A stretch of 27,976 nt of DNA from Armatimonadota bacterium (lineage in GTDB: Bacteria > Armatimonadota > Armatimonadia > Armatimonadales > Armatimonadaceae). Below, piece by piece: positions 4,659 through 27,976 of this stretch. The position numbers were made by a program, and so were the translations under genes. The stretch lies in NCBI GenBank assembly GCA_043754515.1, contig JAYUUO010000227.1, positions 1-27,976 of the forward strand, written 5' to 3'. Under the pieces are notes generated by a model. The model was not told the DNA's origin. It saw only the letters and a program-made list of their open reading frames with translations, and ran no database searches. The stretch's first letter is position 1; each line of letters begins with the position of its first letter.

Positions 4659-5819
4659 TTATTGGCGCGATGAACGAAGCATCTGTTTGAGTTCGGTCAG
4701 GTTATTGGTCGCGACGAACGCCTCCTCCGCCGTAATGCCACGTCCCTGCACCAATTGCTGGAGCGACTGGTTCAGCGTATTCATGCCGAAGTGCCCTCCT
4801 TCCTTGATGCTGTTATAAATGTCGCCGTAAGATTCCCCCTCCTCGATCTGCTTCTTAATCGTGGGCGAGCCGGTCATCACTTCGACCGCCGGGACGCGCC
4901 CGGTCCCCGTCGCCCGCAGAACGAGCCGCTGGGATATAACGCACGTCAGCGTCGCGGCGAGTTGCATCCGCACCTGCTCTCGCTCGTGCGGCGGGAACGC
5001 GTTCAAGATGCGGTCAATCGTGCCGACCGCGCTGATCGTGTGCAGGGTCGTGATGACTAGGTGCCCGATCTCGGCGGCGGTCAGGGCGACGCGCATCGTG
5101 TCGGTATCGCGCATCTCACCGATCACGATCACATCGGGGGTTTGCCGCATCACGGCGCGGAGAGCTGTCGCGAACGAGCGGGTGTCGGTGCCGACCTCGC
5201 GCTGGGAGACGACCGAGTTGCGGTCCTCGAAGACATACTCTATGGGGTCTTCCACCGTAACAACGTTCGCGCGACGGTGTTCGGTGACGTGGTCAACGAG
5301 CGCGGCGAGCGTAGACGACTTACCGCTCCCCGTCGGGCCCGTCACCATAATCAGGCCTTGCGGTTGCATCGCCTGATCCTTGAGCACGCGCGGGAGCATC
5401 AGGGCATCCAGACTGGGCGGACGGAGCGGGATGAGGCGCAGGGCGGCACCGATCGCGCCGCGTTGCAGGAACAGGTTCGCGCGGACCCGCACCAGCCCAG
5501 ACACGGTGAAAACAGCGTCTATCTCGTGCTGGTCTAGGAGGCGGCGCATCAGGTCGTCCGCCGTCTCGCCCGCGACCTGCGCGCCGATCCGCTCGTCGTC
5601 CCCCGCCGCCGTCCCCGCGCGCACGAGGTTGTCGCGGGTGGCGGCATACAGGATGCTCATCGCCATCTCGTGCATCTCGTCGAAGGAGAGGGCACCGATA
5701 TCCGGACGAGACACGATCCGCCCGTCAACGCGTAGCGCGGGCGGGGCGTCGGCTTTGAGTATAAGGTCGGAGGCGCGCGATTGAAGCGCGACATCAAGGA
5801 GGCTATGGATACTTTTCAT
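4659..5819 (-). CDS. pilT: PilT/PilU-family type IV pilus retraction ATPase
   Basis: ASDL N-terminal motif, Walker A GPTGSGKSST, Asp box TVEDPIE, QREVG, Walker B PDVIVIGEMRD and His box GHLVITTLH. A GGGAG SD lies upstream. PilT versus PilU paralogy is uncertain. Confidence 0.88.
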   Translation of the reverse strand: MKSIHSLLDVALQSRASDLILKADAPPALRVDGRIVSRPDIGALSFDEMHEMAMSILYAATRDNLVRAGTAAGDDERIGAQVAGETADDLMRRLLDQHEIDAVFTVSGLVRVRANLFLQRGAIGAALRLIPLRPPSLDALMLPRVLKDQAMQPQGLIMVTGPTGSGKSSTLAALVDHVTEHRRANVVTVEDPIEYVFEDRNSVVSQREVGTDTRSFATALRAVMRQTPDVIVIGEMRDTDTMRVALTAAEIGHLVITTLHTISAVGTIDRILNAFPPHEREQVRMQLAATLTCVISQRLVLRATGTGRVPAVEVMTGSPTIKKQIEEGESYGDIYNSIKEGGHFGMNTLNQSLQQLVQGRGITAEEAFVATNNLTELKQMLRSSRQ

Positions 5820-5907: not shown

Positions 5908-6042
5908 TAGGCCGGTAGCCTAGCGCGATGCGGAACACACTACAAAGGCTGATTGTGCAAGTTTCGCGTCCGCGGAACGATTCTCCTGTATTTCGCCCTA
6001 GTGAATCGCACATCCCCCGCCACTACCACGGTTATACGCAAT

Positions 6043-6603
6043 ATGGACACCAGTGATTTCCGCAACGGCCTCTCGCTCGTTTACGAGGGCAACATTTTTA
6101 CCATCGTTGAATTTCAACACGTCAAGCCCGGTAAGGGAGGGGCGTTCGTCCGCTCCAAGCTGAAGAACCTGAAAACGGGCGCGACCATAGACAAAACATG
6201 GCGTGCTGGGGAGCGCATGGATCAGGCGGTTTTGGAACGCCGACCGATGCAATACTTGTATTTGCTGGATGAGGAAGCACATCTTATGGACTCGGAGACC
6301 TTCGAGCAAACGACCATGCCTATAGCACGGGTCGGCTCGCAGGCAAAATACCTGAAGGAAAATACCGAAATCCAGGTCATATTACATAAAGAGGAAATCG
6401 TCGGCGTTAACCTCCCCGATTTCGCGGAACTCGCCGTAATCGAGACCGACCCCGGGGTGCGGGGTGATACAGCGACCGGCGGAACGAAGCCCGCCACACT
6501 GGAAGGCGGCGCGGTAGTCATGGTTCCCCTATTTATCAACGTCGGCGAGAAGTTGCGCGTGGACACCCGGACGGACACCTACCTGGAACGCGTCAAATCG
6601 TAA
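6043..6603 (+). CDS. efp: Translation elongation factor P
   Basis: MDTSDFRNG start, HVKPGKGGAFVR loop with the conserved Lys, C-terminal TDPGVRGDTATGGTKPATLE and VPLFI. It is 186 aa from the ATG at 6043; the longer TTG-start ORF extension is not EF-P-like. Confidence 0.97.
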   Translation: MDTSDFRNGLSLVYEGNIFTIVEFQHVKPGKGGAFVRSKLKNLKTGATIDKTWRAGERMDQAVLERRPMQYLYLLDEEAHLMDSETFEQTTMPIARVGSQAKYLKENTEIQVILHKEEIVGVNLPDFAELAVIETDPGVRGDTATGGTKPATLEGGAVVMVPLFINVGEKLRVDTRTDTYLERVKS

Positions 6604-6655: not shown

Positions 6656-6718
6656 GCCACGCCCGGTCTCGCGCCCTGCCCGCGACACCACCTGAACGAA
6701 AGGGTTTGGGTTCCTTTG

Positions 6719-7993
6719 ATGAGCGTTAGCGACGGTTCTTCGGAACGACCCACTCTTATATCCTTGATCGGCGGGCCGCTACATGGCCTGCTGACGATAG
6801 CGTCCAATGTCGCGTTCGCGGCCGGTGCCGCCGGGGCGCTGTGGCTTTTCGCGTCGCTGATATTCGGGCAATATGGCGACATCGGCTCGGCACCCGAGGC
6901 GGCGCAAGCCGCCGCGATGAGCAACATCTCGCTTGCGCGGATGCTACTCACATGGGGACTAGGCGTGGGTAGCATCCTCGCCGCAATAATCTATTTCGGA
7001 GAGGAAGTGCTAGGCTACCTCCTGCTCGGCGGCGCGCTCCTGATCGGCTTCGGGATTCCCTCCGGGTTCCAGCAGTTCGGCGGCGAAGGCTTCATTGCCA
7101 CGAAATCCGCCGCGCTAGCCAGAGTGTACGGCGGATTCTTCAGTAGCGTTCAGATCCCCGCCGTAATAGGCGGTTTACTCATCGCCTACGATGTCGTCCT
7201 GCGCCTAGTGCGCACCGCCCGCCAGCGGCCCGTCGTCCGCGTAGAGAAAATGACGTACGGGAGTGGAGCGAAACAGGAAAACACCGCGCGCCCCCCACGC
7301 ACATCGCCACTGGGCAAGTGCTGGGAGGGGCCGTTTTGCCGCGACTTTATCCGCCCTCACTGCCCGATATTCCTGAAGCGGCAAGCCTGCTGGCAACAGA
7401 AGCGCGGATGCTATTGCGAAGAGGACATCGTCTCACAAGCCGCCGCGAAGGTGACTGGTCAGGCGTTGCCGATGGCCGGGGGGACGTCCCGATTCGCGAA
7501 CATGTCCGGCTCAGCCAAGACGAATACGGACGGCACCCCCGACCCGGATATGTCCGGGTTTCAGGCGATAGGCGCGGCACCCGGCATCCCGATGGGTATG
7601 GGCGGGATGAACCCGACGGCCCCGGTACTATCTCAAGGTGGGTCTCGCAAATTCGAGTTGACCACGGGACAGAAGCGGGAGCGGTGCCGAAACTGCGTCA
7701 TCTATAATGAGCACCAGCGCGAGAAATATCAGCTACTTCTACCCGTCGTGATGATCGCGACCGTGGTGTTATGTGGCTTCGTCGCGGTGCAGTTCCAGAG
7801 TAACGCGACCAACGTCGTGAACCTGGTAGAAGGGCTGATCAACCGGTTCTCGTTCCTGCCAGGAAGCCACGCCATTGAGGTAGGCAATGCCTCATCGTCC
7901 GTCGCGTGGGTGTTCATCGGCGCGACAGCCATCATGATACTGTCGAAGACTTTACAGTTTCTGGAGTGGTGCGTGTTCAAGATCAAAATTTGA
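6719..7993 (+). CDS. Hypothetical ~6-TM membrane protein with a Cys-rich (two-CW-like) loop
   Basis: Four hydrophobic segments, then CWEGPFC-x7-CP-x7-CW-x5-CYC...CRNC-x2-Y, then two more hydrophobic segments. GAAAGGG lies upstream and the stop is 1 nt before the next ATG. An alternative TTG is at 6716. Confidence 0.85.
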   Translation: MSVSDGSSERPTLISLIGGPLHGLLTIASNVAFAAGAAGALWLFASLIFGQYGDIGSAPEAAQAAAMSNISLARMLLTWGLGVGSILAAIIYFGEEVLGYLLLGGALLIGFGIPSGFQQFGGEGFIATKSAALARVYGGFFSSVQIPAVIGGLLIAYDVVLRLVRTARQRPVVRVEKMTYGSGAKQENTARPPRTSPLGKCWEGPFCRDFIRPHCPIFLKRQACWQQKRGCYCEEDIVSQAAAKVTGQALPMAGGTSRFANMSGSAKTNTDGTPDPDMSGFQAIGAAPGIPMGMGGMNPTAPVLSQGGSRKFELTTGQKRERCRNCVIYNEHQREKYQLLLPVVMIATVVLCGFVAVQFQSNATNVVNLVEGLINRFSFLPGSHAIEVGNASSSVAWVFIGATAIMILSKTLQFLEWCVFKIKI

Positions 7994-7994
7994 C

Positions 7995-8465
7995 ATGATT
8001 GACCACTCCTCTATCGAAGCGTTCGTCGCCGCGTTTGACAATGCCCCCCAACTGGCGGAGATGGAAATACGCTCCGCGACACACGGCGTGTTGCGCCTAC
8101 GGCGGGCACCGCGCCCGGCGCGTCGCGGCGGACCCGCTGTTCCCCCGCCCCCCGTCGCGGGCGAGGCGACGTCGGACAGCCCTGGTGTCATCCTGTCAAC
8201 AGTGTTGAGTACGATAGTCAAATCCACGCTGGTCGGGGTATTCCGCGCCGCGACCGCCCCCCCTACCGACATCGGCATGTCCGTGACTGAAGGACTGGGG
8301 CTGGGCTACGTCGAAGTTATGCGTCTGTCCAGCGTGGTTCCCGCGCCCGTGATCGGTGAAATAATTGCCGTCTTCGTCGCCGACGGACAGCCGGTCGAGT
8401 ATGGCCAACCCTTGTTCGAGATCGCCGAAACAGTGAACAGCGAGGAGAGCCAAACCATTGAATAA
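7995..8465 (+). CDS. accB: AccB (biotin carboxyl carrier protein)-like protein lacking the biotinyl-lysine (EVMRL)
   Basis: AccB-like N-terminal segment (IEAFVAAF...EMEI...LRLRR), Pro/Ala linker and biotinyl/lipoyl domain (VKSTLVGVF...G...V.DGQPVEYGQPLFEI), upstream of accC. The EAMKM motif reads EVMRL, so canonical function is doubtful. Confidence 0.85.
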   Translation: MIDHSSIEAFVAAFDNAPQLAEMEIRSATHGVLRLRRAPRPARRGGPAVPPPPVAGEATSDSPGVILSTVLSTIVKSTLVGVFRAATAPPTDIGMSVTEGLGLGYVEVMRLSSVVPAPVIGEIIAVFVADGQPVEYGQPLFEIAETVNSEESQTIE

Positions 8466-8466
8466 C

Positions 8467-8928
8467 ATGAAGCGGGCCGGGTTCGGCCTGATCGAGATAC
8501 TGGTCGTCATCGTCATCATCTCTATAATGATGCTGATCCTGATCCCACGATTAACCGGCGACGGCAAGTCCGGGAAGAAACACCACACACCCATCGAGCG
8601 GGCGAAGGACACGGCGGGGATATCGTACGTCTCACAGATAAATCAGGCGATAATGATGTATAAGCAAGACAATGACGGCAAGAACCCGCCTGATTTAAAA
8701 TCGCTCAAGTCCTACGGCGTGTTGGACGAGATGATGGTGGATCAGGTCACGAAGCAGTCACTCGCCTATGACCCCGCCACCGGCGTCGTTAGCGAACCGG
8801 TCAACCCGTCCGCCGCTACTACCGCCCCCGGATCCGCGCCCGCTCCCCCCCGAACCAACGTCGGGCCGGGCGGCGTTTCGCTCCCAAACATCCCACAAAC
8901 ACCAGTCGGCGCGGGCGACAACGAGTAG
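8467..8928 (+). CDS. Prepilin-type N-terminal cleavage/methylation protein (GspG/ComGC-like pseudopilin or type IV pilin)
   Basis: MKRAG|FGLIEILVVIVIISIMMLILIP class III signal peptide with Glu5. QINQAIMMYKQDNDGKNPPDLKSL resembles the GspG-type head. The C-terminal tail is Pro/Gly/Ala-rich. Confidence 0.88.
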   Translation: MKRAGFGLIEILVVIVIISIMMLILIPRLTGDGKSGKKHHTPIERAKDTAGISYVSQINQAIMMYKQDNDGKNPPDLKSLKSYGVLDEMMVDQVTKQSLAYDPATGVVSEPVNPSAATTAPGSAPAPPRTNVGPGGVSLPNIPQTPVGAGDNE

Positions 8929-8930
8929 CG

Positions 8931-10292
8931 ATGTTCAGGAAAATACTGATCGCCAATCGCGGCGAGATCGCCGTCCGTATCATCCGCGCCTGTAAAGAAA
9001 TGGGGATCGCCACGGTACAGGTGTATTCCCAGGCGGACGCGGACTCGCTCCCAGTCCACCTCGCCGACGAATCCGTGTGCGTGGGACCCTACGCCGGCAA
9101 AGACTCGTACCTGAACGTGCCCAACATCGTCTCCGCCGCGCTGATCACCGGCGCGGAGGCGATCCATCCCGGCTACGGCTTCCTTGCCGAGACTGCTTCG
9201 TTTGCCGAAGTTTGCGCGGCGGCCGGGATTAAGTTCATCGGCCCACCGGTCTCGGCTATCGAAGCCATGGGCGACAAAGCGACGGCTCGGGAAACCGCGA
9301 AACGCGCCGGGGTGCCCACCGTGCCCGGCTCCGAAGGCGTGATCGGCTCCGAAGCCGAGGCATTACGCGTCGCGGCGGGCATCGGCTACCCGGTGATCCT
9401 TAAAGCGACGGCAGGTGGCGGCGGGCGCGGCATCCGTGTCGTGCATACCGAGGATGAATTGATAGCGGCCCTCAAGGTATCGCAGACGGAGGCGGCGGCG
9501 GCGTTCGGCAACGCGGACGTGTACATTGAAAAGTACATCACGTCCATGCGCCACATCGAGGTTCAGATACTCGCCGACGAGCATGGCAACTGCATCCATC
9601 TTGGCGAGCGGGAATGTTCGGTGCAGACGGTGCGCCACCAGAAGGTGGTCGAGGAGGCACCGTCCGTGACGCTGACTCTGGATCAGCGGTTGGCGATCGG
9701 CGCGGCGGCGGTCAAAGCGGCGAAGGCGGTAGGCTACACGAACGCGGGAACGGTGGAGTTTATCTGGACGCCGGATGGCAAGTTCTACTTCATGGAGATG
9801 AACACCCGGATTCAGGTCGAGCACCCGGTCACGGAGGCGGTGACCGGCGTTGATCTGGTGCGGTGGCAGATACGGATCGCGGCCGGCGAACCCCTCCCTC
9901 TTCGGCAGGAGGATATCACCTGGCACGGGCACAGTATCGAGTGCCGCGTCACGGCGCAGGACCCCGAGCGCGGGTTCGCGCCCGGTGCGGGTCTGCTGAC
10001 GAGCGTACGCTTCCCCGGCGGTCTCGGTGTTCGCATTGACACGCAGATTTATGGCGGTTACCTGATGCCGCCGTTCTACGACAGCAACTTGGCGAAGGTG
10101 ATCGTCTGGGGCGAAACCCGAACCGAAGCGATAGCACGGATGCGCCGTTGCCTGGACGAGTTCGAGGTGGAAGGGATCCCGACCAACATTGCCTTCCTGC
10201 AACGCATCCTGGCCGACGACCGGTATCGGAGCAATGACGTATCCACGGCGTTCCTTCCGAGTCTAATGACCGAGATGGGGTTGTCTGGGTAA
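8931..10292 (+). CDS. accC: Biotin carboxylase (acetyl-CoA carboxylase BC subunit)
   Basis: KILIANRGEIAVR, HPGYGFLAE, KATAGGGGRGIR, RHIEVQ, EMNTRIQVEHPVTE and PPFYDS; 453 aa. Confidence 0.96.
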   Translation: MFRKILIANRGEIAVRIIRACKEMGIATVQVYSQADADSLPVHLADESVCVGPYAGKDSYLNVPNIVSAALITGAEAIHPGYGFLAETASFAEVCAAAGIKFIGPPVSAIEAMGDKATARETAKRAGVPTVPGSEGVIGSEAEALRVAAGIGYPVILKATAGGGGRGIRVVHTEDELIAALKVSQTEAAAAFGNADVYIEKYITSMRHIEVQILADEHGNCIHLGERECSVQTVRHQKVVEEAPSVTLTLDQRLAIGAAAVKAAKAVGYTNAGTVEFIWTPDGKFYFMEMNTRIQVEHPVTEAVTGVDLVRWQIRIAAGEPLPLRQEDITWHGHSIECRVTAQDPERGFAPGAGLLTSVRFPGGLGVRIDTQIYGGYLMPPFYDSNLAKVIVWGETRTEAIARMRRCLDEFEVEGIPTNIAFLQRILADDRYRSNDVSTAFLPSLMTEMGLSG

Positions 10293-14635: not shown

Positions 14636-15901
14636 TCACGGAAGAATCGTGTCGTAAACTGCTTCTATATCCCGCGCGGTTCGACGCGGCAGGAATCGCG
14701 CGCGCACTTCCCGCCAGCCGTTCCCACCCAAGTGCGACGCGGTTGCCGGGTCGCGCAGGAGTGTCAGAAGCGCGTCGGCGAGGGCGGGCGCGTCCCCCAT
14801 CGGCACCAGCAGGCCGGTGCGACCGCTTTCCACGGTCTCCGGTACCCCGCCGCCTCTGGTCGCGATCACAGGAATACCCGCCGCCATGCCTTCGATGATT
14901 ACCTGGCCGAACGGCTCCGGGGTGATACTCGCGTGAACCAGCAAATCCAGTTCGGACAATAGTTTGGGGATGTCCGCGACGTTGCCGCGCCACTCGACCG
15001 CGCCGGGCGGAAGGTCGCGCGCCGCGAGTGCCTTCACTTCGGCCTCGTAAGTGTCCTCACCGAAGAGCGCGGCACCCGCGATCACGAAGCGCAATGACGG
15101 GATCGTCGCGTCTCGCTCCCTGTCGAGCGTCTCGCGCACGGCCCGCGCCGCCTCGAGAAAGATATGTTGCCCCTTCCAATGGGTCAGCCGCCCGATGATG
15201 CCGATGTAAAGAGGGCGGGCGTCGCTGATCGCCCGCCATGAAGCGCGTGGGGTCGGCTCGGGAACGCCCAGGAAACTTTCGTCCACGCAATCCGACACGA
15301 CCGTATAGCGTCCTATGCTTTGCCCGCGCGTGGTCGCGGCGTCGTCCCCCGCGAACAAGGACGTCAGGGTGCTACGCGAGTTACAGATCACGTGCGTCGG
15401 GAGCCGCCTCGCCAACAGGCGCAGGGCGCGCACCGCTATGCCGGGCAGGTATTGCGCCGAGATATGGTCGCGGATGTGCCAAATGACCGGGATTCGCGCG
15501 ATACGCCCCGCTATGGCACCGTAGACGTCGGACTTCAGACTGTTACAATGGATCAGTTCGCAACGGTGCTCTCTAGCGAGCACGGCGACACGGCAGGCGT
15601 ACGCGAGCAGGGTAGTCCCCCCGCCGATTACTTTTCCCACTATCCCTCTGGCACCGAGCGAATCCTTGCGCGTTTCGCGCATGCCGGTCGCCAGCGGCTC
15701 GATCAGGACACGCACGCTGACGTCCCGTAGTCGGTCGGCGAGCACTCCCTCCTCGCCGAGCACGACCACCGCCTCGTAGCGGTCGCGATCTAGCGCGGTC
15801 AGGAAGCGATAAAGCGCGATCTCGCCGCCGCTCCAGCGGGCGGTGTGATCCAAAAACATCACGCGCCGTGGCGCGGCGCGAGTTTCTTCCGCCCTCGTCA
15901 T
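14636..15901 (-). CDS. Glycosyltransferase family 4
   Basis: VMFLDHTARWSGGE, WHIRD, IGRLTHWKGQ and EPFGQVIIEGMAAG (EX7E). The true start is likely the ATG at 15901, which forms an ATGA overlap with the upstream stop, rather than 16162. Confidence 0.92.
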   Translation of the reverse strand: MTRAEETRAAPRRVMFLDHTARWSGGEIALYRFLTALDRDRYEAVVVLGEEGVLADRLRDVSVRVLIEPLATGMRETRKDSLGARGIVGKVIGGGTTLLAYACRVAVLAREHRCELIHCNSLKSDVYGAIAGRIARIPVIWHIRDHISAQYLPGIAVRALRLLARRLPTHVICNSRSTLTSLFAGDDAATTRGQSIGRYTVVSDCVDESFLGVPEPTPRASWRAISDARPLYIGIIGRLTHWKGQHIFLEAARAVRETLDRERDATIPSLRFVIAGAALFGEDTYEAEVKALAARDLPPGAVEWRGNVADIPKLLSELDLLVHASITPEPFGQVIIEGMAAGIPVIATRGGGVPETVESGRTGLLVPMGDAPALADALLTLLRDPATASHLGGNGWREVRARFLPRRTARDIEAVYDTILP

Positions 15902-17175
15902 GGCTGTAGCACGCTCCTGTAAACCGTCTCTACAGCGGCGGCGTGCCGCGCCCAGGTGTAGCGATCGTCCACGAATATGCGGAGCCGCTCCGCCGTCAGT
16001 TCCCGCGCCCAGACCTCGCCGCGCTCCTGGGCCTCGCAGAATGCGAGTATCGCTTCCGACAAGGAAACCGAATCGGTGCCGCGCGTTAAAAGTCGGGGTT
16101 CCAGGTCGCCGAGCACCTCCGGGGTCGCGCCGACCGGGGTCGCGACTACCGGAGTGCCGCACGATAAAGACTCCACAGTGACGAGGCCGAAACCTTCCAG
16201 CGACAGCGTCGGCAGGACGAAGAGGTCGGCACCCCGGTAATAGTCAGCGACCAGCTCGTCGGGTATAAACCCGGCGAACGTCGTCGCATCCGCGACGCCG
16301 AACGTGCCCGCCATCGCTTGGAGCGGCTCCATGAGGGGGCCGCGCCCACCGATTACGAGATGCGCCTTCGGAAATCTCCTCCGCACAGCGGGGAACGCGG
16401 CGATTAGATTTTCGAGTCCCATCCTGGGTACCAGGCGACGTATGGACAGAAGGAGTGGATAGGCCTCGGTCGGCAGGCCGGACTTCTCCCGCGCTTGATG
16501 GCGTGCGCCAGGGTCGTCAGTATCCACGAAATACCGGTCACGGTTCACCCCGCCCGGTATTTTGACGACATGATCCGCCGCGTACCCGAACGCGGCGACT
16601 TCACTCCGCGTCTGCTCGGATAATATCACCGTTCGCAGACTGGTTCGGAGGTTTTGCGCCTCGACGGAGTGGCGGTAATGGCGTTTGGCGAACGCACGCG
16701 CGAGCAGGATGGGCCTTCTCCACGGCGCAGTGCTTTTCAGCAGGGCGGTGTCTTCCACAAAGCCCTCGACATCCCACGGGCCGTAGAAGGAACGTATCCG
16801 GGGGACGCTACCCGGTATCGCACTCATCGGGCCGACGGCGGAATACGCGAAATGTGTGTGTACTAGATCGAAGGGCCTGTTCTCGCGGGCGGCATCCGCG
16901 ATTAGTTTCGCGCAGGCGATTCGCCCGTTACGCACCCACGCCGCAGGGTTATCCCCCTTCGCATACTGCGCGACGCTGCCATACTCCGGGTCGCGCCAGT
17001 CCTCCGGCTCGCCCGACGCGGCGCGGGAAACTAACAGAGTGGCATCGTGCCCCCCTTTTATTTGGGCGCGGATCAGCTCCCGCGCGACCTGGCGTGAGCC
17101 GCCTGGCTTTTCCTCGAATCGGATGTCGGAGAGATGCAGTATCCGCAGACGGCCACCTTCGTGAGACGGACTCAG
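15898..17175 (-). CDS. Glycosyltransferase family 4 with a probable CTG start
   Basis: The frame is open upstream of the track start (16935) and encodes LRILHLSD...PGGSRQVARELIRAQIKGGHDATLL, a typical GT4 N-terminus. The C-terminal part has RRLVPRMG and EGFGLVTVE. The candidate starts are CTG 17175 and CTG 17148. Confidence 0.88.
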   Translation of the reverse strand: MSPSHEGGRLRILHLSDIRFEEKPGGSRQVARELIRAQIKGGHDATLLVSRAASGEPEDWRDPEYGSVAQYAKGDNPAAWVRNGRIACAKLIADAARENRPFDLVHTHFAYSAVGPMSAIPGSVPRIRSFYGPWDVEGFVEDTALLKSTAPWRRPILLARAFAKRHYRHSVEAQNLRTSLRTVILSEQTRSEVAAFGYAADHVVKIPGGVNRDRYFVDTDDPGARHQAREKSGLPTEAYPLLLSIRRLVPRMGLENLIAAFPAVRRRFPKAHLVIGGRGPLMEPLQAMAGTFGVADATTFAGFIPDELVADYYRGADLFVLPTLSLEGFGLVTVESLSCGTPVVATPVGATPEVLGDLEPRLLTRGTDSVSLSEAILAFCEAQERGEVWARELTAERLRIFVDDRYTWARHAAAVETVYRSVLQP

Positions 17176-18308
17176 AGCGTGCCGCCTTCTCGGTCGCCGA
17201 TCTGAAAGCCGGGGTCGACACCGTCACGCGTCTCCCCGGCCTGCCCCAACTCGCGCGCGATTATGTAAAGAGGGCGGTGCTTCACCTCATCGTATATACG
17301 CCCGATGTACTCGCCGACGAGTCCCAATGTGATAAGTTGTATGCCGGAGAGGAAGGTCAACACGGTGATCACGCTCGCCCAGCCGGGCTGGAACGTTCCC
17401 TGTGAAAAGATGACGCGTATCACCGTCACGATCCCGTAAATGATCGAAAGGGCGGCGACCACAAGCCCGATGTTAGTGGCCAGTTTGAGCGGGGCGTCCG
17501 AGAACGACGTGAGGGCGTCCATCGCGAAACGTAGCATCTTGCCCAGGGGGTACTTGGTCTCGCCCGCCGCGCGCGCCGGCCGCTCGTAGTAGATCGGCTC
17601 CTGCTTAAACCCAACCCAGGCACTCATGCCGCGCAGGAAGCGGTGTGACTCGTTCATCCGATTGAGCGCGTCCACTACGCACCGATCCATCAACCGAAAA
17701 TCGCCGGTGTCGGCGGGGATATCCACGCTGGTCATGCGGCGTAAGAGCGTATAGAACTGGGACGCGGTCCATTTCTTGAATGCGGTCTCGCCTTCGCGCT
17801 TCGTGCGCACGGCGTACACGACATCTGCCCCTGCCAGCCATCGGGCGATCATCCTCGGGAGCAACTCGGGCGGGTCTTGTAGGTCCGCGTCCAAGAGCGC
17901 GATGGCGTCGCCCGTAGCGTGGTGCATCCCCGCTGTGACGGCGGCCTGGTGGCCGAAATTGCGTGAGAAGTCGAGCACGCGCAAGAAAGGACGGGTCTGG
18001 GTGGCTTCGGCGAGTTGCGCCAGCGAATCATCGCGTGAGCCGTCGTTGACACAGATCACCTCGACGGTGAGCGGAGGCAGATCGCCCCCACTCCCTTCAA
18101 CGGTCGCCCCGCGAGACAGTTCAGCGACCACGTCGTCAACGCGTCCCATTAATATGGGGATCACCTTGGACTCGTTAAAGATAGGGAACACAAGCGACAG
18201 TTTCGGGCTTGCGTTGCCACGCCCTGACACGCCAGTGAGAAGTGCTCCGCTATCAGAGCCGCTCGGGGCATTGATGGGGATGTGCGTAGACGGGGGGAAA
18301 GAGGGCAT
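17172..18308 (-). CDS. GT2 polyisoprenyl-phosphate glycosyltransferase (GtrB/CsbB-like)
   Basis: LSLVFPIFNE, VNDGSRD, FSRNFGHQAA, DADLQDPP, TGDFRLMD, two C-terminal TM helices and LGLVGEYIGRIYDEVKHRPLY. Confidence 0.93.
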   Translation of the reverse strand: MPSFPPSTHIPINAPSGSDSGALLTGVSGRGNASPKLSLVFPIFNESKVIPILMGRVDDVVAELSRGATVEGSGGDLPPLTVEVICVNDGSRDDSLAQLAEATQTRPFLRVLDFSRNFGHQAAVTAGMHHATGDAIALLDADLQDPPELLPRMIARWLAGADVVYAVRTKREGETAFKKWTASQFYTLLRRMTSVDIPADTGDFRLMDRCVVDALNRMNESHRFLRGMSAWVGFKQEPIYYERPARAAGETKYPLGKMLRFAMDALTSFSDAPLKLATNIGLVVAALSIIYGIVTVIRVIFSQGTFQPGWASVITVLTFLSGIQLITLGLVGEYIGRIYDEVKHRPLYIIARELGQAGETRDGVDPGFQIGDREGGTL

Positions 18309-20051
18309 CTATCTGTTTCCCTTCGGCGAACGGGAGGGCAAGGCGACGACAGCGCGCGGAGACTGTGTGTCAAAGCGTTTTACCCATATATAATACGGGA
18401 GTGTTGGGCGGTGCATCATCTCCGAGAGCCACAACCTCTCCGCATCAGTCCTCCACATGAAGCCCGTCTCAACCGGGGGACCGAAGCGTTGCCCAAGCAC
18501 GGTACATAATGTAGCACCCCGCACTACCGCGTTATGATCACCCCTATCCCGCCCGATAAAGTAGAGGTAGCGGCGCCTCCCTAGATTATTCAGACTCAGG
18601 CTGATTGTTCGTGATACGCCATCGGCATCGCTGGATTGCTTATTCGGATTTACCACGGGAACCCCAGAATTGGAATGTCTCAGGCCGAAGTCTATCACCG
18701 CTTCTTCCGTGATGATCACCGCCTTCTCGCGGAATCCGTCAGCCTCCAGGCGGCTCATCACGGCTCCCCAGGGTGCCGTGTAGTTCGGGTTGAGAAACTC
18801 ACGCCCGATCCAGTAGTTAACGTCGGAGTAGATCCAGACACAGAACAAGACAATAATCATCCCCACCCGGATGGGGCGGGGACGCAACATCATCAGCCCC
18901 GTCGCCACGGTCACACAGAACAGCGGGACCAGGAAAGAATCCCGTTTGCCCATGCTACCGAGTGTCTGCATCGCGCCGAACCGCCCGCTTGTGATCAATG
19001 CGAACAGGAGTGTCGTGACGACGACCACGATCGGGATGACGCACTCTCGCTTTCTATGCAAGTAAGCAGCACCAGCGACGAACGCGAATAAACTTCCTAC
19101 CACCCCCGGTAGCGAGACTGCCCAGGTCCAGGGGTATACTGTTTCGCCAACACAATACATGTATACGGGTAGCATGAAGCGTCGAATGAAACCGCCTAAT
19201 CCCTGTCCGACAGAGGGGTCTTCCACGGAGACGCCACCGCCACCGCCGCTCTGACCCGCGAGTTGCCAGAGGATCACGGGCGATAAGAGTACGGCGCAGG
19301 CGACCATAGCACCGAATACTTTCGGCGCGTGTCTCTCGCTACGCCACTGATATGCTAACGCGAGGAACTGCCCGACGACCAGAAACAGGCTCGGCACGTA
19401 GATGAGCAGCATCGTCATTGTCACCACGCCGTAGGCAACAATGAGTCTCGATTTACCAGTACCCAAGGCTCGTAAAAACAGGTAAACACTCCATGTGGCT
19501 AGTAAGCCTAATACCGCGTGGTAGCGCGTCATACGGTCGAATAGGAGAATCCCCGGAGATATAGCGGTAATCCAGAGCGCGAGCAATCCAACCTTATAAT
19601 TCAGACGTCTACCCAACAGGTACGCTATATAGGGAGTGAAAACGCCGGGCAGTGCCGAGAAAAATCGGTACAGCGCAATACTGTCGCCGAATAGATTGCG
19701 TATCCCCCAAAGTACAAGTGCTTGCAAGGGGGTGTGATCCCTCGGCGACGCGTTACCACGCGCTATCTCAATCAGCGGGTAGTAGCCACATTCCAAATTC
19801 AGAACTTCGTCGGTCCATAGCGGTTTCGCCAGAGGAAAAAGCAAGAGCAACAGTGCGCCGATGAACAGCCCACTCCAGAAAAGGATGCGGAACCATGATG
19901 ACGGCTCCGAAGGTTTCCGCTCTTCCGAACTTCGGTCCTTCGCGCCGACATCTGCCGAACTCATCCTGCTGGTAGGCATTTCATCAGGAGTTGCGACAGC
20001 GGACACAAGGACTTCTCTCCTCGTGCCGGTCATCGAAGTATTCTCTAGCAT
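18309..20051 (-). CDS. GT-C superfamily (PMT/ArnT-like, GT39/83) integral-membrane glycosyltransferase
   Basis: LWTDE after TM1, DHTPL, RFFSAL, RMTRYH, many TM segments and a soluble C-terminal domain. The stop abuts the GT2 ATG. The exact start is uncertain (several ATGs). Confidence 0.82.
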   Translation of the reverse strand: MLENTSMTGTRREVLVSAVATPDEMPTSRMSSADVGAKDRSSEERKPSEPSSWFRILFWSGLFIGALLLLLFPLAKPLWTDEVLNLECGYYPLIEIARGNASPRDHTPLQALVLWGIRNLFGDSIALYRFFSALPGVFTPYIAYLLGRRLNYKVGLLALWITAISPGILLFDRMTRYHAVLGLLATWSVYLFLRALGTGKSRLIVAYGVVTMTMLLIYVPSLFLVVGQFLALAYQWRSERHAPKVFGAMVACAVLLSPVILWQLAGQSGGGGGVSVEDPSVGQGLGGFIRRFMLPVYMYCVGETVYPWTWAVSLPGVVGSLFAFVAGAAYLHRKRECVIPIVVVVTTLLFALITSGRFGAMQTLGSMGKRDSFLVPLFCVTVATGLMMLRPRPIRVGMIIVLFCVWIYSDVNYWIGREFLNPNYTAPWGAVMSRLEADGFREKAVIITEEAVIDFGLRHSNSGVPVVNPNKQSSDADGVSRTISLSLNNLGRRRYLYFIGRDRGDHNAVVRGATLCTVLGQRFGPPVETGFMWRTDAERLWLSEMMHRPTLPYYIWVKRFDTQSPRAVVALPSRSPKGNR

Positions 20052-20054
20052 GAT

Positions 20055-20360
20055 TTATATCCTCTCCAGCGACGGCACACTGGCATTGACCAGCATAAAG
20101 TATTTCGTGAGTGCACTGAGGCGACTCCACTGATCCCCCATGCTACCGTCATCCGCTAGCGGAGCACGGGGGCACCTACTCAGAACGTCGGCAACCGCCG
20201 CGAAGGGGCGGTACCATACGCGTGCTAGCTGGTAACGTGCCTTCCAGCCATCGAAGACGGGAACTGCCAAAACATACGACGCGCTGTTAGCCGTCGGATG
20301 GGAGCAGACAGGGAGACTATATCTTTTCTTCGTGCTTAAATTTGCAGTCATGGCTATCAT
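20055..20360 (-). CDS. Possible small hypothetical protein (101 aa)
   Basis: An ATG follows an AT-rich tract, and the stop is 3 nt before the GT-C start. There is no recognisable motif, so the ORF may be non-coding. Confidence 0.2.
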   Translation of the reverse strand: MIAMTANLSTKKRYSLPVCSHPTANSASYVLAVPVFDGWKARYQLARVWYRPFAAVADVLSRCPRAPLADDGSMGDQWSRLSALTKYFMLVNASVPSLERI

Positions 20361-20449
20361 TTATTATTAATTAGACTTCTGACGCCATGCGCTAATGACT
20401 GTGACCGCGCACGGTATCCCACTCTCGCGACACGTGTCACCAAGTCGGC

Positions 20450-21667
20450 TCACCCGGATGGATGATCCGCCGTTAGGGATTTGGCCGGTTCCTTCGCAGG
20501 AAGAGTGGGACCATGCGAGGATGCATTGCTCTGCCATGAGGGACGGACGTTCGCGGGTAGCGCACCTTTTTTCCCGAAACCCGCGGCGAGTTCATCGCGC
20601 ACGACGTTACGATCCAAGAGATCTCCGTAAACCTTCTCATAGCGAGCGACGACCGCCTCCCACCCATATTCGCGGGCACGTGCCGAACCCAGAGATTCGT
20701 AGCCCCCCCGCCGCGCCGGGTCGGTCAGTAGCGAGATGAGTTCCCGTGCCAGTGTATCATCGGGCGCGACGACCCCGTACTTCCCATCCGCTAGAACTTC
20801 GCGCGCACCCATATTCGGCGAGCCGACCGCGACAGTGCCGGATGCGAACGCCTCAATGTAGGGCACGCCGAAGCCCTCGTACAGACTTGGCAGACAGAAC
20901 ACCCACGCCCGCTTATATAGTTCGGTGAGTAATTTGAACGGAATTCGCCCGAAGTTTTTAATGCCGTCCCCCTCCAGTGGCTCATCAGAGACGGCCCAGA
21001 GCGTGGCACCAGACGGTAACCGTGGTAGCATTTCGCGACTCCACTGGTCGGCAAGCCACTGCCCGCGTTTTCGTCCGCCTTTGGTTCCGACGAAGAGCAC
21101 AATCGGACTATCTTCCTTGGTACCCGACGCGAACGAGGACAAATCAACGCCGCACGGGATGACCTCGGCGACTTCCGGGAATCGGAGGCGTGTCGCCTCG
21201 GAGATTCCCGTGACGTAATCCGCGCGGCGTGCGCCCCACTCTTCCAGGGGGATAAGCACAGCCTGAAAGATTTTGCGTCGCAACGTGCTCGCGCTACGCA
21301 TCTCATCACGGGCGGAGCCGTTAATAGTTCGTACTATCGGCGGATGTCCCCCGCCTCCCGTCAAATAGTTGTCGCCCATTAGATGCACGATGTCAAACCC
21401 ATCCCAGCTCTGCTTTCTTAGCGCAAAGGCGAAGGCGAACGAGGCCACGAAATGTGGGAGTCGCGGCTTCGGCAGAGTACGAACCGCATACAACGAATCG
21501 TCGCATGGCGGGCTGAATGTCACCATTGTCACTTGATGACCACGTAGAACAAGCGCGTTCGCCAGGTGATGCGACTGGTGCGCGACACCGCCTTTGGACT
21601 CGTTGGGTAGATCCGCGTGACCGATTGCTATACGGAGCGGCGAAAGTATTGACGGCGAGTTGATCAT
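20450..21667 (-). CDS. Glycosyltransferase family 4
   Basis: LRIAIGH...KGGVAHQSHHLANALVLRGHQV, IPCGVD, LFVG...RKRG and PSLYEGFGVPYIEAFASG; low-complexity C-terminal tail. Confidence 0.92.
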   Translation of the reverse strand: MINSPSILSPLRIAIGHADLPNESKGGVAHQSHHLANALVLRGHQVTMVTFSPPCDDSLYAVRTLPKPRLPHFVASFAFAFALRKQSWDGFDIVHLMGDNYLTGGGGHPPIVRTINGSARDEMRSASTLRRKIFQAVLIPLEEWGARRADYVTGISEATRLRFPEVAEVIPCGVDLSSFASGTKEDSPIVLFVGTKGGRKRGQWLADQWSREMLPRLPSGATLWAVSDEPLEGDGIKNFGRIPFKLLTELYKRAWVFCLPSLYEGFGVPYIEAFASGTVAVGSPNMGAREVLADGKYGVVAPDDTLARELISLLTDPARRGGYESLGSARAREYGWEAVVARYEKVYGDLLDRNVVRDELAAGFGKKGALPANVRPSWQSNASSHGPTLPAKEPAKSLTADHPSG

Positions 21668-21747
21668 GGCTTGGTGACACCTACCAAGACCCCGCGCGAT
21701 GGCGCGACCTTCTCGGGTGTGACATTCATCAGGCTTTTAGGCATGGG

Positions 21748-23511
21748 CTAGGAAGGGCGCGTGTCGGTGATGTCACCGCCCGCCTGGAGCGTAGTCGCGC
21801 TACGCTCCAGCATGTCACGCTCGGTTGACTCGATGCGGGGTACCGCGAGTATCGAGCCGCAACATATCCAGAAGAAGTAGTTCGATTGCAGTGACGCCCC
21901 GCCGAAACTGTAAATTATCGTGCTCAGAATATACGTGTATAACAGGGAGGCCACCACCCGTAGATTGGCATCCTTAACAGTACGACAGATCTGATATCCG
22001 AAATATAGGATGCCGACGAAGAGGGCTGCATTCAGAATGAGTCCGAAGATACCCATGTCGCCCTGAGTGGCATTCCATTGCGTTTCCCGGTCAGAGACAT
22101 TGTTCAGCACGTGGATGTCAATAGTAAGGTTGGAGTTGCCAGCACCCGCGAATAACGAGGTTCTGGAGATCCCGATCCCGAGCGGACGTATAGTAATCGT
22201 TTTGTAGAGGGAGTCGAAGTGATACCCTCGTTGCTTCTGGTACGAAGTGAACGGGTTCTGAAGAGTAGACTTGTAACGCTTCGTCAGCTTACCATGCGCG
22301 AGTCCGTCAGCTATGGCGAATGAGACGACCAGAAGAGTGGCAATCAAGAACGTCATGAAATAGATCCGGGCGGCGTCCTGCAACCGCCGCACCGAGAGAG
22401 CGAGGAAGACGGGGGTGACAGCAAGCAAAGTCAGAACAGAAAGTCGGACGCTCGAAACGGCGATCGCCATCCCTGTCACGATCACTGACATGAGTGCCAC
22501 CACGCGGCGCGCACCCAGCATCCGCGGCATTGTCCCGACGCACAACGCGGCGAGTAGCGACGTAGCCGCGACACCGACGTAACCGCCGGCGATGGCGTAT
22601 GTCCCAACAGGACGGAACGCGCCTTCCTCGCCTACCTTTCCTCCAACGAGTGCGTAAGACATTAAGTTAACGCTCTCCTTCATTCCGATGACATGACTGT
22701 AGCACCACGATCGCCCCATATTGAACTGAAAGAGGGCATAAGCCGCGGAGACAAAACCGACCACGAGCGTCATGTAGACCAGACCCATCGCATGCTTCCG
22801 CCGCGTGAGGTTGTAGTAGGAGACGAAAAAGAACGCCATCGGAGCGGTATACCATACGAGGCCGCCTTGTAAGGCGGTGACGATGCTCGGCGTTTCGGGG
22901 TTTAGACACTGTAACAGACTGAGGGACATCAGCGCGGCGACGAGCATACTCATCTTGGGCAGGGGTATGGCCGGCTCATCCGGTGCATCTCCGAGGACGC
23001 TGGGCTTCGAAGTTGTCGGGACGGGGGATACTTTCGCGGACTTCTTCGAGGCCGATAGCATGTTCTGTACGCGGAGGCGCCACGCGATGATGATCACGGT
23101 CGCTAAAAGCGGCGCGACGATGTAGACGATCTGGTTGAACTTGGAAGTGTATTTGTACATCCCCTCAAGGCTAAGGTACACGGTGAACAGCATCACGGCA
23201 TTCCAGGTGTCTGTCAAGGCGACGGCTGATATTACGACGAAAATCAGCATGAGAGACAGGTAAGTGAAGCCTGTCTTGACGACGATGGACCCAATTATGA
23301 TGGCGGCTATCATCATCCCCCAGACAAGGGCACGTGATACTTCTTTTTTATCGTTGTAGAGCGCGCGAAGCAACGGGATATTAATCGCGGCGCGTTTGGG
23401 CACCGGGGGGGGCAACCGGAAAGGCTTGATAGGGACGTCCGATGGCGTGGCACGGGCGGAATCCGGGCGGGGCGAGGGTGACGAGTTGTCCAGGGAGAGT
23501 GGGAGTAACAT
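21748..23511 (-). CDS. Wzy polymerase / O-antigen ligase-like membrane protein
   Basis: Many TM segments, FRPVGTY, SSVR, a periplasmic loop ending RPLGIG, and DMGIFG. It lies directly downstream of wza/wzc. The ATG at 23511 is preferred because it avoids overlap with wza. Confidence 0.75.
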   Translation of the reverse strand: MLLPLSLDNSSPSPRPDSARATPSDVPIKPFRLPPPVPKRAAINIPLLRALYNDKKEVSRALVWGMMIAAIIIGSIVVKTGFTYLSLMLIFVVISAVALTDTWNAVMLFTVYLSLEGMYKYTSKFNQIVYIVAPLLATVIIIAWRLRVQNMLSASKKSAKVSPVPTTSKPSVLGDAPDEPAIPLPKMSMLVAALMSLSLLQCLNPETPSIVTALQGGLVWYTAPMAFFFVSYYNLTRRKHAMGLVYMTLVVGFVSAAYALFQFNMGRSWCYSHVIGMKESVNLMSYALVGGKVGEEGAFRPVGTYAIAGGYVGVAATSLLAALCVGTMPRMLGARRVVALMSVIVTGMAIAVSSVRLSVLTLLAVTPVFLALSVRRLQDAARIYFMTFLIATLLVVSFAIADGLAHGKLTKRYKSTLQNPFTSYQKQRGYHFDSLYKTITIRPLGIGISRTSLFAGAGNSNLTIDIHVLNNVSDRETQWNATQGDMGIFGLILNAALFVGILYFGYQICRTVKDANLRVVASLLYTYILSTIIYSFGGASLQSNYFFWICCGSILAVPRIESTERDMLERSATTLQAGGDITDTRPS

Positions 23512-23575
23512 AGCTATATGAGTGGGACGTTCGGCGAGGTCGGCGGCGTCATGCGCATGACGCCGCCGTATGCCT

Positions 23576-24841
23576 CTACCGCGAGAAGAGGTAACGCAGG
23601 TTGACCAGACCACCGAGCGCGCCCAGGGAGCTAACCCCGTCCATTATGCCGAACTTCCGACCGTTCTTGAATGGGATGTAAACGATGTCGCCCGGTAGGA
23701 GTACGATATTCTTAGACAGATCCGCCTTCTTTAGCATCTCCTCGACGTTAACGGTTGTTGCGACCTGCGTCCCGTCGGGCTTGGCGCGGATGACCTGCGT
23801 CTTCTTCGTCTCGGCCTGCTGGAGGGGTACCCCGGCGTCCGATATCGCTTGAACCAGAGTCATAGGGCGATCATCCGGTATAAGGGTAGCACCTTGCCGG
23901 TTGAAGGCACCAACCATGTATACGAGCCGCCTGTTCTCGGGCACTACCAACTTGTCACCCGGCTGAAGACGTACCTCCGGTTCGGAACCGTCCTTGACAT
24001 ACTGCCGGAGATCAATAGGTATCTTCGTGCCGTTCCGCTCGATCACCGCTTCCGACAACAGCGCGGACGGCTTCACTCCGCCCGCGTCCTGCAAAGCTTT
24101 GCTGACTGTGTGGTCACGCGGGATCAGCACGGCACCCGGCTTGAACACCTCGCCAGTCACCTGAATCTGCGATCTCGATTCATCAACCGAGTCCACAATC
24201 AGCAGGTCATTCGGTTCCAGAAGCATGTTCGCGGACGAATCGCTGTTTTGGTAGACCGCGCTTAGGTCTATCGGAATGACTTCTTTCGTCTCCAGGCGGA
24301 TCAACCTCGCCGTGAATAGGTCGGTCCGGTCGGAGATTAGTCCCCCCGCGTCGGAGAGAGCATCCAGAACGTGCCAGCCGTCACGCATTATCCGCTTCCC
24401 AGTCGTTTTGACCCCGGACCCGGTCACCGCTACCTGCCGCACTTGTCTTTCGCGCACGCTCACCGAGACCTGCGGACGGACAAAATCTTTGCGAATGACT
24501 CCGGCGAGGATGGCCTCCACTTCGCGTGGAGTCTTACCCGCGACCACGATCTGCCCCGCTTTCGGGTAGGAGATAGTACCGTCAGGTAGCACCGTCGCGA
24601 GCATGGTGTATTGGGGATCGTTCATACAAGATATGAAGATGGAGTCGTCCTTGCTGATCTTGTACGTGGAGACCCCGTTCGCGGGCTTGACCGAAGCCGA
24701 CTTACTCGTCGCTACCGCAGTCTTGTCTTTTGGTTTCGCCCTCACGCCCGTACGCACTCCGGTATTCTGAGCCGACGCGACGCCGGTCAGCATAACGGCC
24801 ACCCCTAACCCGACGGCGATTTTCTCTTGGATTCTTGACAT
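23576..24841 (-). CDS. wza: Wza-like polysaccharide export protein (Poly_export plus SLBB repeats)
   Basis: YKISKDDSIFI...VLPDGTISYPKAGQIVVAGKT (PES motif), three SLBB-like repeats (LEPND, LQPGD, LLPGD) and a C-terminal amphipathic helix. An AGGAG SD precedes the ATG at 24841, followed by an N-terminal signal peptide. Confidence 0.88.
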   Translation of the reverse strand: MSRIQEKIAVGLGVAVMLTGVASAQNTGVRTGVRAKPKDKTAVATSKSASVKPANGVSTYKISKDDSIFISCMNDPQYTMLATVLPDGTISYPKAGQIVVAGKTPREVEAILAGVIRKDFVRPQVSVSVRERQVRQVAVTGSGVKTTGKRIMRDGWHVLDALSDAGGLISDRTDLFTARLIRLETKEVIPIDLSAVYQNSDSSANMLLEPNDLLIVDSVDESRSQIQVTGEVFKPGAVLIPRDHTVSKALQDAGGVKPSALLSEAVIERNGTKIPIDLRQYVKDGSEPEVRLQPGDKLVVPENRRLVYMVGAFNRQGATLIPDDRPMTLVQAISDAGVPLQQAETKKTQVIRAKPDGTQVATTVNVEEMLKKADLSKNIVLLPGDIVYIPFKNGRKFGIMDGVSSLGALGGLVNLRYLFSR

Positions 24842-24863
24842 TGTGTTAACTCCTGAGGGGCGA

Positions 24864-27089: not shown

Positions 27090-27454
27090 CGGCGGTCTTT
27101 CGTTGCGGCGGCTATTAGCACCCGGCGTGCTCGGGACGCGCGGCATGGGTACATTTGCCTAGGGTAGACGGAGTAGTGCCGTTCTATTAGCCTCGTCCCG
27201 TGCAGTCGAGTTTGTTTCTTTCGGCGGTTATTTTGACATGCGTCTATTCCGCCATAAATCGTCGGACAGCTCACCGAGCAGTTCGGGTAGCATTGATCCG
27301 TCGCGCCCTAACTCTTTCGTCAGAAGAGGATGCCGTAAGGCAGACGGTTCCCGGCTTGTGAAGACGGTGATCCGAAGGAGGCCAACTATTAATACTCAAA
27401 CGTCGGTACTCGAGTTCGCCGCCACCGTTTGCGCGCTTCGCACCGGTCGGAACC

Positions 27455-27460
27455 ATTATA
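27455..27460 (-). promoter_or_regulatory. Perfect -10 hexamer TATAAT, possible internal promoter for the wzc operon
   Basis: ATTATA on the plus strand at 27455-27460, within the ~450-nt gap upstream of wzc. No convincing -35. Confidence 0.35.
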
Positions 27461-27545
27461 CAGCATCTCTTCCTCGCCGCGCACGGATCAAACGACATTT
27501 GTCGTCAGTGAAATTTACCACACCTGGCGATAAACTCCCCGCCAC

Positions 27546-27976
27546 TCAATATGCGCCGTCCGCTTTCAACACCGCGGGTATTAGACGCATGAGGATCCAC
27601 AAGTCGGTGCGGACCGAGCGGTTGCGTATGTAGAGCAGATCGTAGGCCACCCACTGATCAAAGCTCAGGTGCGAGCGACCGAGTACCTCGCGCAGACACA
27701 GCAACCCTGGCTCGACGTTCTGCCGGTCGAAATGCCAGTCCTCGTACATCTCCACCTCGCGGGGCAGGTGCGGGCGCGGCCCAACGAGTGTCATCTCGCC
27801 TCGCAGAACGTTGACGAGTTGCGGCAGTTCATCAAGACTAGTTCGGCGCAGAATGCGCCCGCAACGGGTGACGCGGGGATCGTTCTTGATCTTGAACACA
27901 GGACCTGCCGCCTCGTTCAAGGAGGCTATTTTCTCTTTCAACGCGTCCGCGTCACGAACCATGCTCCGGAACTTGT
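27546..27976 (-). CDS. Priming sugar transferase (WbaP/WcaJ-type phosphoglycosyl transferase domain), 5'-truncated by the window end
   Basis: KFRSM (the frame stays open past the window edge), [44 protein letters not shown] and GAY*. Confidence 0.93.

Follow-up and report, generated by a model that had tools for sequence, protein, structure and literature searches.

A Lys-less AccB paralogue beside accC in Armatimonadota is a likely non-catalytic adaptor of ACC

Can an AccB protein that has no biotin-accepting lysine still serve ACC, and if so, in what capacity? The question is raised by a 27,976-nucleotide stretch of an Armatimonadota bacterium genome (GenBank assembly GCA_043754515.1, contig JAYUUO010000227.1, forward strand), hereafter the window, in which an accB homologue encoded close to accC, here termed accB* or copy A, carries an arginine where the E. 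coli protein has Lys122. Codons 8313-8327 read GAA GTT ATG CGT CTG, which translate to EVMRL, and alignment with E. coli BCCP places Arg110 opposite K122, in agreement with the initial annotation. That annotation had also held that a single base-calling error cannot explain Arg110, and this proved correct: a second near-identical protein (P0030), which differs from accB* at 1 of 156 positions, also contains EVMRL, and a contig from another study that covers positions 8226-8508 shows a single difference, at 8476, and none at the Arg110 codon. Together, these two sources rule out an assembly or base-calling error. BirA requires the Lys for biotin attachment, and from the missing Lys the accB* protein is predicted not to be biotinylated. 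The literature that we searched yielded no paper on K122R biotinylation.

In other respects, the protein resembles E. coli AccB/BCCP (1BDO, 4HR7, 8UXZ; TIGR00531), with which it shares a three-part architecture, the fold, the gene neighborhood, and the docking residues. The PF00364 match lies above the cut-off, as expected for a biotinyl-domain fold. The AlphaFold2 model, based on a 28-row alignment, has a mean pLDDT of 86 and comprises an N-terminal segment, a low-confidence linker, and the biotinyl domain; its best Foldseek match is 1BDO (E 8.2e-06). The helix-strand-strand segment and linker of a functional BCCP thus appear intact in the prediction, as had been suggested, and the same N-terminal motif is predicted for E. 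coli BCCP in the portion of PMC11160672 consulted. Two further features of a functional BCCP are missing from accB*, namely the Lys at the hairpin tip (E-A-M-K), where Arg110 is found, and a thumb with conserved Tyr and Pro. As first reported, the thumb spans 10 residues rather than the 14 of E. coli BCCP, which leaves a four-residue gap in the alignment, and Arg84 stands in place of Tyr92. The thumb is described as necessary for BCCP function (PMC11926652, in part). Also unlike E. coli AccB, in which one protein holds features here shared out over two, accB* falls below the TIGR00531 cut-off (49.3 versus 115.2 bits), as does the second AccB of this genome, copy B (90.2 bits).

Table 1. Features of the accB* locus, in window positions; residue equivalents refer to E. 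coli BCCP.
Feature	Position	Strand	Description	Basis
efp	5953..6603	+		longest ORF; true start probably later
425-aa protein	6716..7993	+	hydrophobic, Cys-rich	stop codon 1 base ahead of accB* ATG
accB* (copy A)	7995..8465	+	AccB paralogue, 156 aa, without biotin-accepting Lys	PF00364, 34.5 bits
N-terminal segment	7995..8105	+	helix-strand-strand, residues 1-37, predicted assembly module	AlphaFold2 model: H4-15, E22-27, E31-36, pLDDT 86-91
biotinyl-fold domain	8208..8429	+	residues 72-145	pLDDT 94-98 over residues 71-140; Foldseek best match 1BDO
Val80	8232..8234	+	equivalent of Val88, BC-contact residue	alignment with E. coli BCCP
shortened thumb	8244..8273	+	residues 84-93; Arg84 replaces Tyr92	alignment with E. 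coli BCCP
Arg110	8322..8324	+	CGT at Lys122 position	codon read and alignment
Pro133-Val-Glu135-Tyr136	8391..8402	+	equivalents of Pro145/Glu147/Phe148, BC-/AccD-contact residues	alignment
prepilin-like gene	8467..8928	+	N_methyl / GFxxxE, between accB* and accC	domain search
accC	8931..10292	+	sole biotin carboxylase found in assembly	

The initial annotation described a bare efp-accB-accC locus, and this part of its account must be revised. The gene order is efp, a gene for a 425-aa protein, accB*, a prepilin-like gene, and accC, with gaps of 1-2 bases between each of the last four (Table 1). The 425-aa protein matched no Pfam or NCBIfam family. In 28 of the 59 Armatimonadota A loci, as well as in genomes G045 and G094, a homologue occupies the interval from efp to accB*. 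A homologue of the prepilin-like gene separates accB* from accC in 32 of the 59, a curious conserved presence for an operon of fatty-acid synthesis. Divergently upstream of efp lies a gene for a PilT-like T2SSE ATPase (4659-5819), and the minus strand over 14636-27962 carries a gene cluster for the synthesis and export of polysaccharide (glycosyltransferases, Wzy-like, Wza, Wzc-like, sugar transferase). Scanning the locus for promoters and terminators returned nothing beyond what shuffled sequence gave. In all 59 stretches examined, efp or accC is found within ~3 kb of copy A (accC in 50, efp in 48).

If accB* is not the carrier, the true BCCP would be encoded elsewhere, as had been proposed, and the genome does contain a Lys-bearing AccB: copy B, with the motif EAMKV, is found at C201:25309-25830 of the same assembly (92.7% complete). 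The genome also contains one AccC, adjacent accD and accA genes on contig C189, and one BirA, and the search found no biotin carboxylase besides the one AccC. A second carboxylase that might serve as partner for one of the two AccB copies was considered and rejected; judged by the sequence of their N termini, the weak AccC matches in this genome resemble carbamoyl-phosphate synthase and PurD. The eight PF00364 matches comprise accB*, copy B, three weak matches in other long ORFs, and the N-terminal domains of three long proteins that we take to be E2-like. Given this single set of ACC genes, there is only one enzyme to which either AccB copy could belong, and at the sequence level accB* thus coexists with a biotinylatable BCCP of the same ACCase. 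The BirA (L290:1399-2163) carries the motif RFPND in place of the usual KWPND and seems to have no DNA-binding domain.

An orthologue of copy A is present in 31 of the 31 genomes of the order sample, and copy B with EAMK in 30, the exception being G001, which is 85% complete. Within the family to which the window belongs, none of the 19 copies of A has Lys; 16 have Arg (CGC in 11, CGG in 3, CGT in 2), one has His, and two have Gly. The best 120 database matches to the family profile, five of which were read by eye, contain 104 Arg, 16 Gly, and no Lys. Lys is kept in 12 of 12 copies of A in the sister family, yet the thumb there is nine residues long. Over 49 codons around the site, 14 pairs of copy A give pN values of 0.05-0.29 versus pS values of 0.36-0.86, and dN/dS is 0.05-0.28 in the nine of these pairs with measurable dS. 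The orthologues at this locus thus combine absence of the Lys throughout the family with dN far below dS, the mark of purifying selection, and accB* with its Arg110 is a real, conserved, and selected feature.

To extend the comparison, we searched 121 Armatimonadota genomes with A and B profiles. Outside the order, A was taken from 58 of 110 genomes, spread over families and drawn from ranked lists, and B from 62, for totals with the order set of 89 A and 92 B domains. Four copies of A stand outside these counts, those of G045, G094, and G042, which have Gly, and that of G139, which has Lys. At the Lys122 position, the 89 A domains carry Lys in 33, Arg in 31, Gly in 14, His, Ser, Asp, Thr, and Asn in two each, and Ala in one, and Lys-less A is present in 25 of 34 families. 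Every one of the 92 B domains combines the Lys with a thumb of 14 residues. Of the 56 genomes with a Lys-less A, 55 also yielded a Lys-bearing B. In a 77-column tree, a single branch separates A from B (SH-aLRT 96; the tree has no outgroup and many unresolved forks), and the Lys/non-Lys state requires at least 12 changes on the A tree. In a joint tree that asks whether copy A arose once or several times, calculated from 77 columns, motif included, and with three truncated outgroup rows, the 73 A rows all fall to one side (support 82), and B needs three changes.

These counts bear on two readings that we regard as very improbable. In the first, copy A would still carry biotin or lipoate through another Lys, recoding, or an unusual ligase, and the 33 Lys-bearing copies speak for it; against it, the only Lys of the accB* protein is K76, which in the AlphaFold2 model sits on a strand remote from the hairpin, and no single recoding rule can explain eight different residues in place of Lys across the phylum. 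In the second, A would be a redundant duplicate in decay. Its pN exceeds that of B in 11 of 12 pairs, its thumb ranges from 7 to 17 residues (n = 89), and the TIGR00531 score of accB* is far below the cut-off, as decay would have it. A pseudogene is nonetheless contradicted by dN far below dS, and further arguments against decay are the presence of A in every genome of the order, a docking motif that is near-invariant in three phyla, and the finding of no stop codon inside any of 60 order-level ORFs. We also considered the short thumb as the defining change in copy A and rejected it, given that Lys-bearing copies of A share the short thumb and that the Elusimicrobiota copies described below mostly do not have it.

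What, then, has been conserved in copy A? According to the supplement of an E. coli ACC cryo-EM preprint (PMC11160672, in part), BCCP docks noncatalytically through M121 and M123 against AccD:BC and through V88 and F148 against BC; P145 and E147 are also docking residues, with E147 forming a salt bridge to AccD K8, and the preprint names M121/M123 as the primary AccD:BC contact. Using this one preprint as the residue list, and presuming an E. coli-type architecture for the Armatimonadota ACC, we transferred the positions via the accB* alignment and numbered them after E. coli BCCP. Among the 89 A and 92 B domains, respectively, V88 is found in 88 and 31, P145 in 72 and 1, E147 in 83 and 13, and an aromatic residue at 148 in 89 and 0. 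The carrier features show the reverse distribution, with Lys in 33 and 92, an aromatic residue at 92 in 3 and 92, P86 in 36 and 92, and A120 in 26 and 87. M121 occurs in 63 and 92 (a hydrophobic residue in 89 and 92) and a hydrophobic residue at 123 in 84 and 88. AccC keeps V/I49, V/I51, and P53 in 18 of 18 sequences of the family. The residue counts show that the features of an ancestral AccB have been divided between two genes in Armatimonadota, with the predicted docking set in A and the carrier set in B.

Because A keeps the docking residues and B keeps the Lys but few of them, accB* is likely a noncatalytic ACC adaptor, as BADC may be in plants, that fills the docking site of BCCP at the junction of AccC and AccD and tethers the Lys-bearing B, rather than a decoy; we assign this a probability of roughly 0.6. 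In such a complex, A would sit in the noncatalytic BC-AccD docking site via its equivalents of V88, P145, E147, and F148, would hold B through the N-terminal segments while leaving it free to shuttle, and would be required for full ACC activity. For E. coli ACC, the N-terminal segments of BCCP have been modeled as forming a barrel to which the carriers are tethered (PMC11160672, in part), and a BCCP hairpin barrel has been seen in Chloroflexus BC1 (PMC11077971, in part).

The initial annotation had left open a decoy or a scaffold subunit. Its proposal of a noncarrier AccB is supported, and the partition of residues between the copies favors the scaffold over the decoy, since the catalytic copy B has lost most of the surface for which a decoy would compete. 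As a tunable inhibitor, A would occupy AccC or dilute B in the N-terminal oligomer and so reduce the synthesis of fatty acids, perhaps in response to PII or pH, a type of control proposed for BADC in plants. We consider this unlikely, although an inhibitor role of BADC has been reported in vivo (PMC11926652, in part), Arg, a mimic of Lys, is the commonest substitute (31 of 56 Lys-less A, and the great majority of the best 120 database matches), and a short motif scan found a PII-like ORF in this genome. With P145, E147, and F148 lost from B, little would be left to compete for at the docking site, and the tight packing of the accC gene run would suit fixed coexpression with AccC better than separate control.

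More doubtful still is a role outside the complex, in which A would either act as a sink for BirA or regulate its own accC operon through the N terminus. The N terminus of E. coli AccB represses accBC (PMC11160672, in part), and copy A keeps E119 in 72 of 89 domains along with M121 in most. The best-kept residues of A, however, are the BC and AccD contacts and not the ligase motif, as the low retention of A120 indicates, and the BirA match begins at residue 13 of a 255-aa ORF (with its start chosen), which leaves no space for a DNA-binding domain.

Several observations count against the adaptor reading. Of the six docking positions in the preprint, copy B keeps two, M121 and a hydrophobic residue at 123, the primary AccD:BC contact, so B may dock alone, and the 33 Lys-bearing copies of A may still be biotinylated. 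Genome G094 (97% complete; L295, G094:C5:69788-72961) has a Lys-less A, but neither a B nor any other PF00364 match was found in it, and G001 also is without B. Three of the 12 sister-family A genes are not adjacent to accC, and most genomes encode A and B at separate loci, G032 being the only one seen to have them side by side. There, efp, A, accC, and B form one gene run (C26:9500-18300), possibly an ancestral arrangement. Elsewhere, B adjoins one gene type in 76 of 90 loci, which we take to be homoserine dehydrogenase-like, and another in 27, which we take to be threonine synthase-like; neither arrangement is found in the present genome.

A comparable pair of genes occurs in Elusimicrobiota, where one record (L027) has efp, an accB with EAMQV, and accC, in addition to a second, Lys-bearing AccB. 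Among 41 genomes of this phylum, 39 have two AccB matches, one has one, and one has three. We sorted 71 stretches by gene context, 38 with the copy beside efp or accC and 33 others. The 38 linked copies all have E147, an aromatic residue at 148, and V or I at 88, with thumbs of 13-14 residues, and they carry Lys in 28, Arg in 5, Ser in 3, and Gln and Glu in one each. All 33 other copies have Lys, two have E147, and one has an aromatic residue at 148; one of these, L336, has an A-type sequence. A search with P0210 listed 120 matches, eight of which are named Ktedonobacterales/Chloroflexota, and in these listed matches V88, E147, and aromatic 148 each occur 120 times and Lys does not occur. By these residues, the Chloroflexota-labeled (Ktedonobacterales-labeled) family matches copy A. 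In 39 AccB loci from other phyla, which were retrieved partly by the end motif itself, the Lys, the thumb, and a PVEYG-type end are found together.

The closest known parallel to this arrangement is found in plants and green algae. BADC of the plastid heteromeric ACCase (Arabidopsis BADC1-3; Chlamydomonas Cre01.g037850) is, like copy A, a BCCP paralogue without the biotinylation Lys that exists beside a true BCCP. The consulted portion of PMC11926652 calls BADC unique to plants, reports that no binding of Arabidopsis BCCP1 to BC was seen without BADC, and describes a dispute over whether BADC is an ACCase glue or an inhibitor. Read by eye from published supplements, full-length Brassica BCCP domains have Ala88, Ser147, and Val or Leu148 (PMC9578262, in part), and soybean BCCPs follow the same pattern (PMC11432495, in part). 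The Lys-less soybean paralogues in the latter supplement, also read by eye and taken here to be BADCs, have Val88, Arg92, Pro145, Gly147, and Tyr148. In their V88, P145, Y148, and Arg at position 92 they resemble accB*, while the plant BCCPs are without equivalents of V88, E147, and F148; the Gly rather than Glu at 147 counts against the adaptor reading. Unlike BADC, copy A is bacterial and chromosomal, with Armatimonadota as its closest named relatives and not a plastid-targeted plant or algal protein, has efp and accC as neighbors, retains Glu147 and the greater part of the E-x-M-x-L motif, and has a short thumb, and a third of its orthologues still have Lys. We therefore use BADC-like in the sense of working like BADC, with no implied membership of the BADC clade, and the plant and bacterial splits are probably of independent origin. 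The epsilon subunit (AccE) of actinobacterial acyl-CoA carboxylase, likened here by description only, is also a noncatalytic glue subunit, as proposed for A, but in the part of the literature consulted is not described as a BCCP paralogue. In the published literature searched, with subscription papers largely outside its scope, we found no bacterial Lys-less AccB paralogue; further comparison literature, consulted in part, includes PMC12706156, PMC13585458, PMC11889953, PMC3199775, and the preprint 10.64898/2025.12.30.697075.

Three results are new here: docking and carrier residues are partitioned reciprocally between the two copies, Elusimicrobiota show such a split as well, and plant sequences offer a parallel. 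A broader reading, to which we give even odds, is that a five-subunit bacterial ACC is widespread, at least in Armatimonadota, Elusimicrobiota, and part of Chloroflexota, with one AccB product serving as an obligatory docking subunit and the other as a catalytic carrier defective in docking. The plant BADC/BCCP pair would then be one instance of a recurring split, the glue role of BADC would be explained by the loss of the V88/E147/F148 face from plant BCCP, and the residue rule would predict noncatalytic copies even among those with Lys. A bacterial two-AccB system with reciprocal residue loss offers a minimal, expressible test of the glue-versus-inhibitor dispute over BADC, together with a residue-level hypothesis. 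In these phyla, genes that sit next to accC and are labeled accB often do not encode the biotin carrier, with consequences for annotation, for metabolic models, and for the reconstitution of ACC.

Two minor observations concern the wider distribution of such domains. The Atlas lists a Vulcanimicrobiota cluster, which we note as a lead. In addition, the proteins P0137, P0142, and P0146 carry two to four BCCP-like domains in tandem, fused to an N-terminal region that we assume to be TIR-like; the Lys is present in some of these domains and absent from others.
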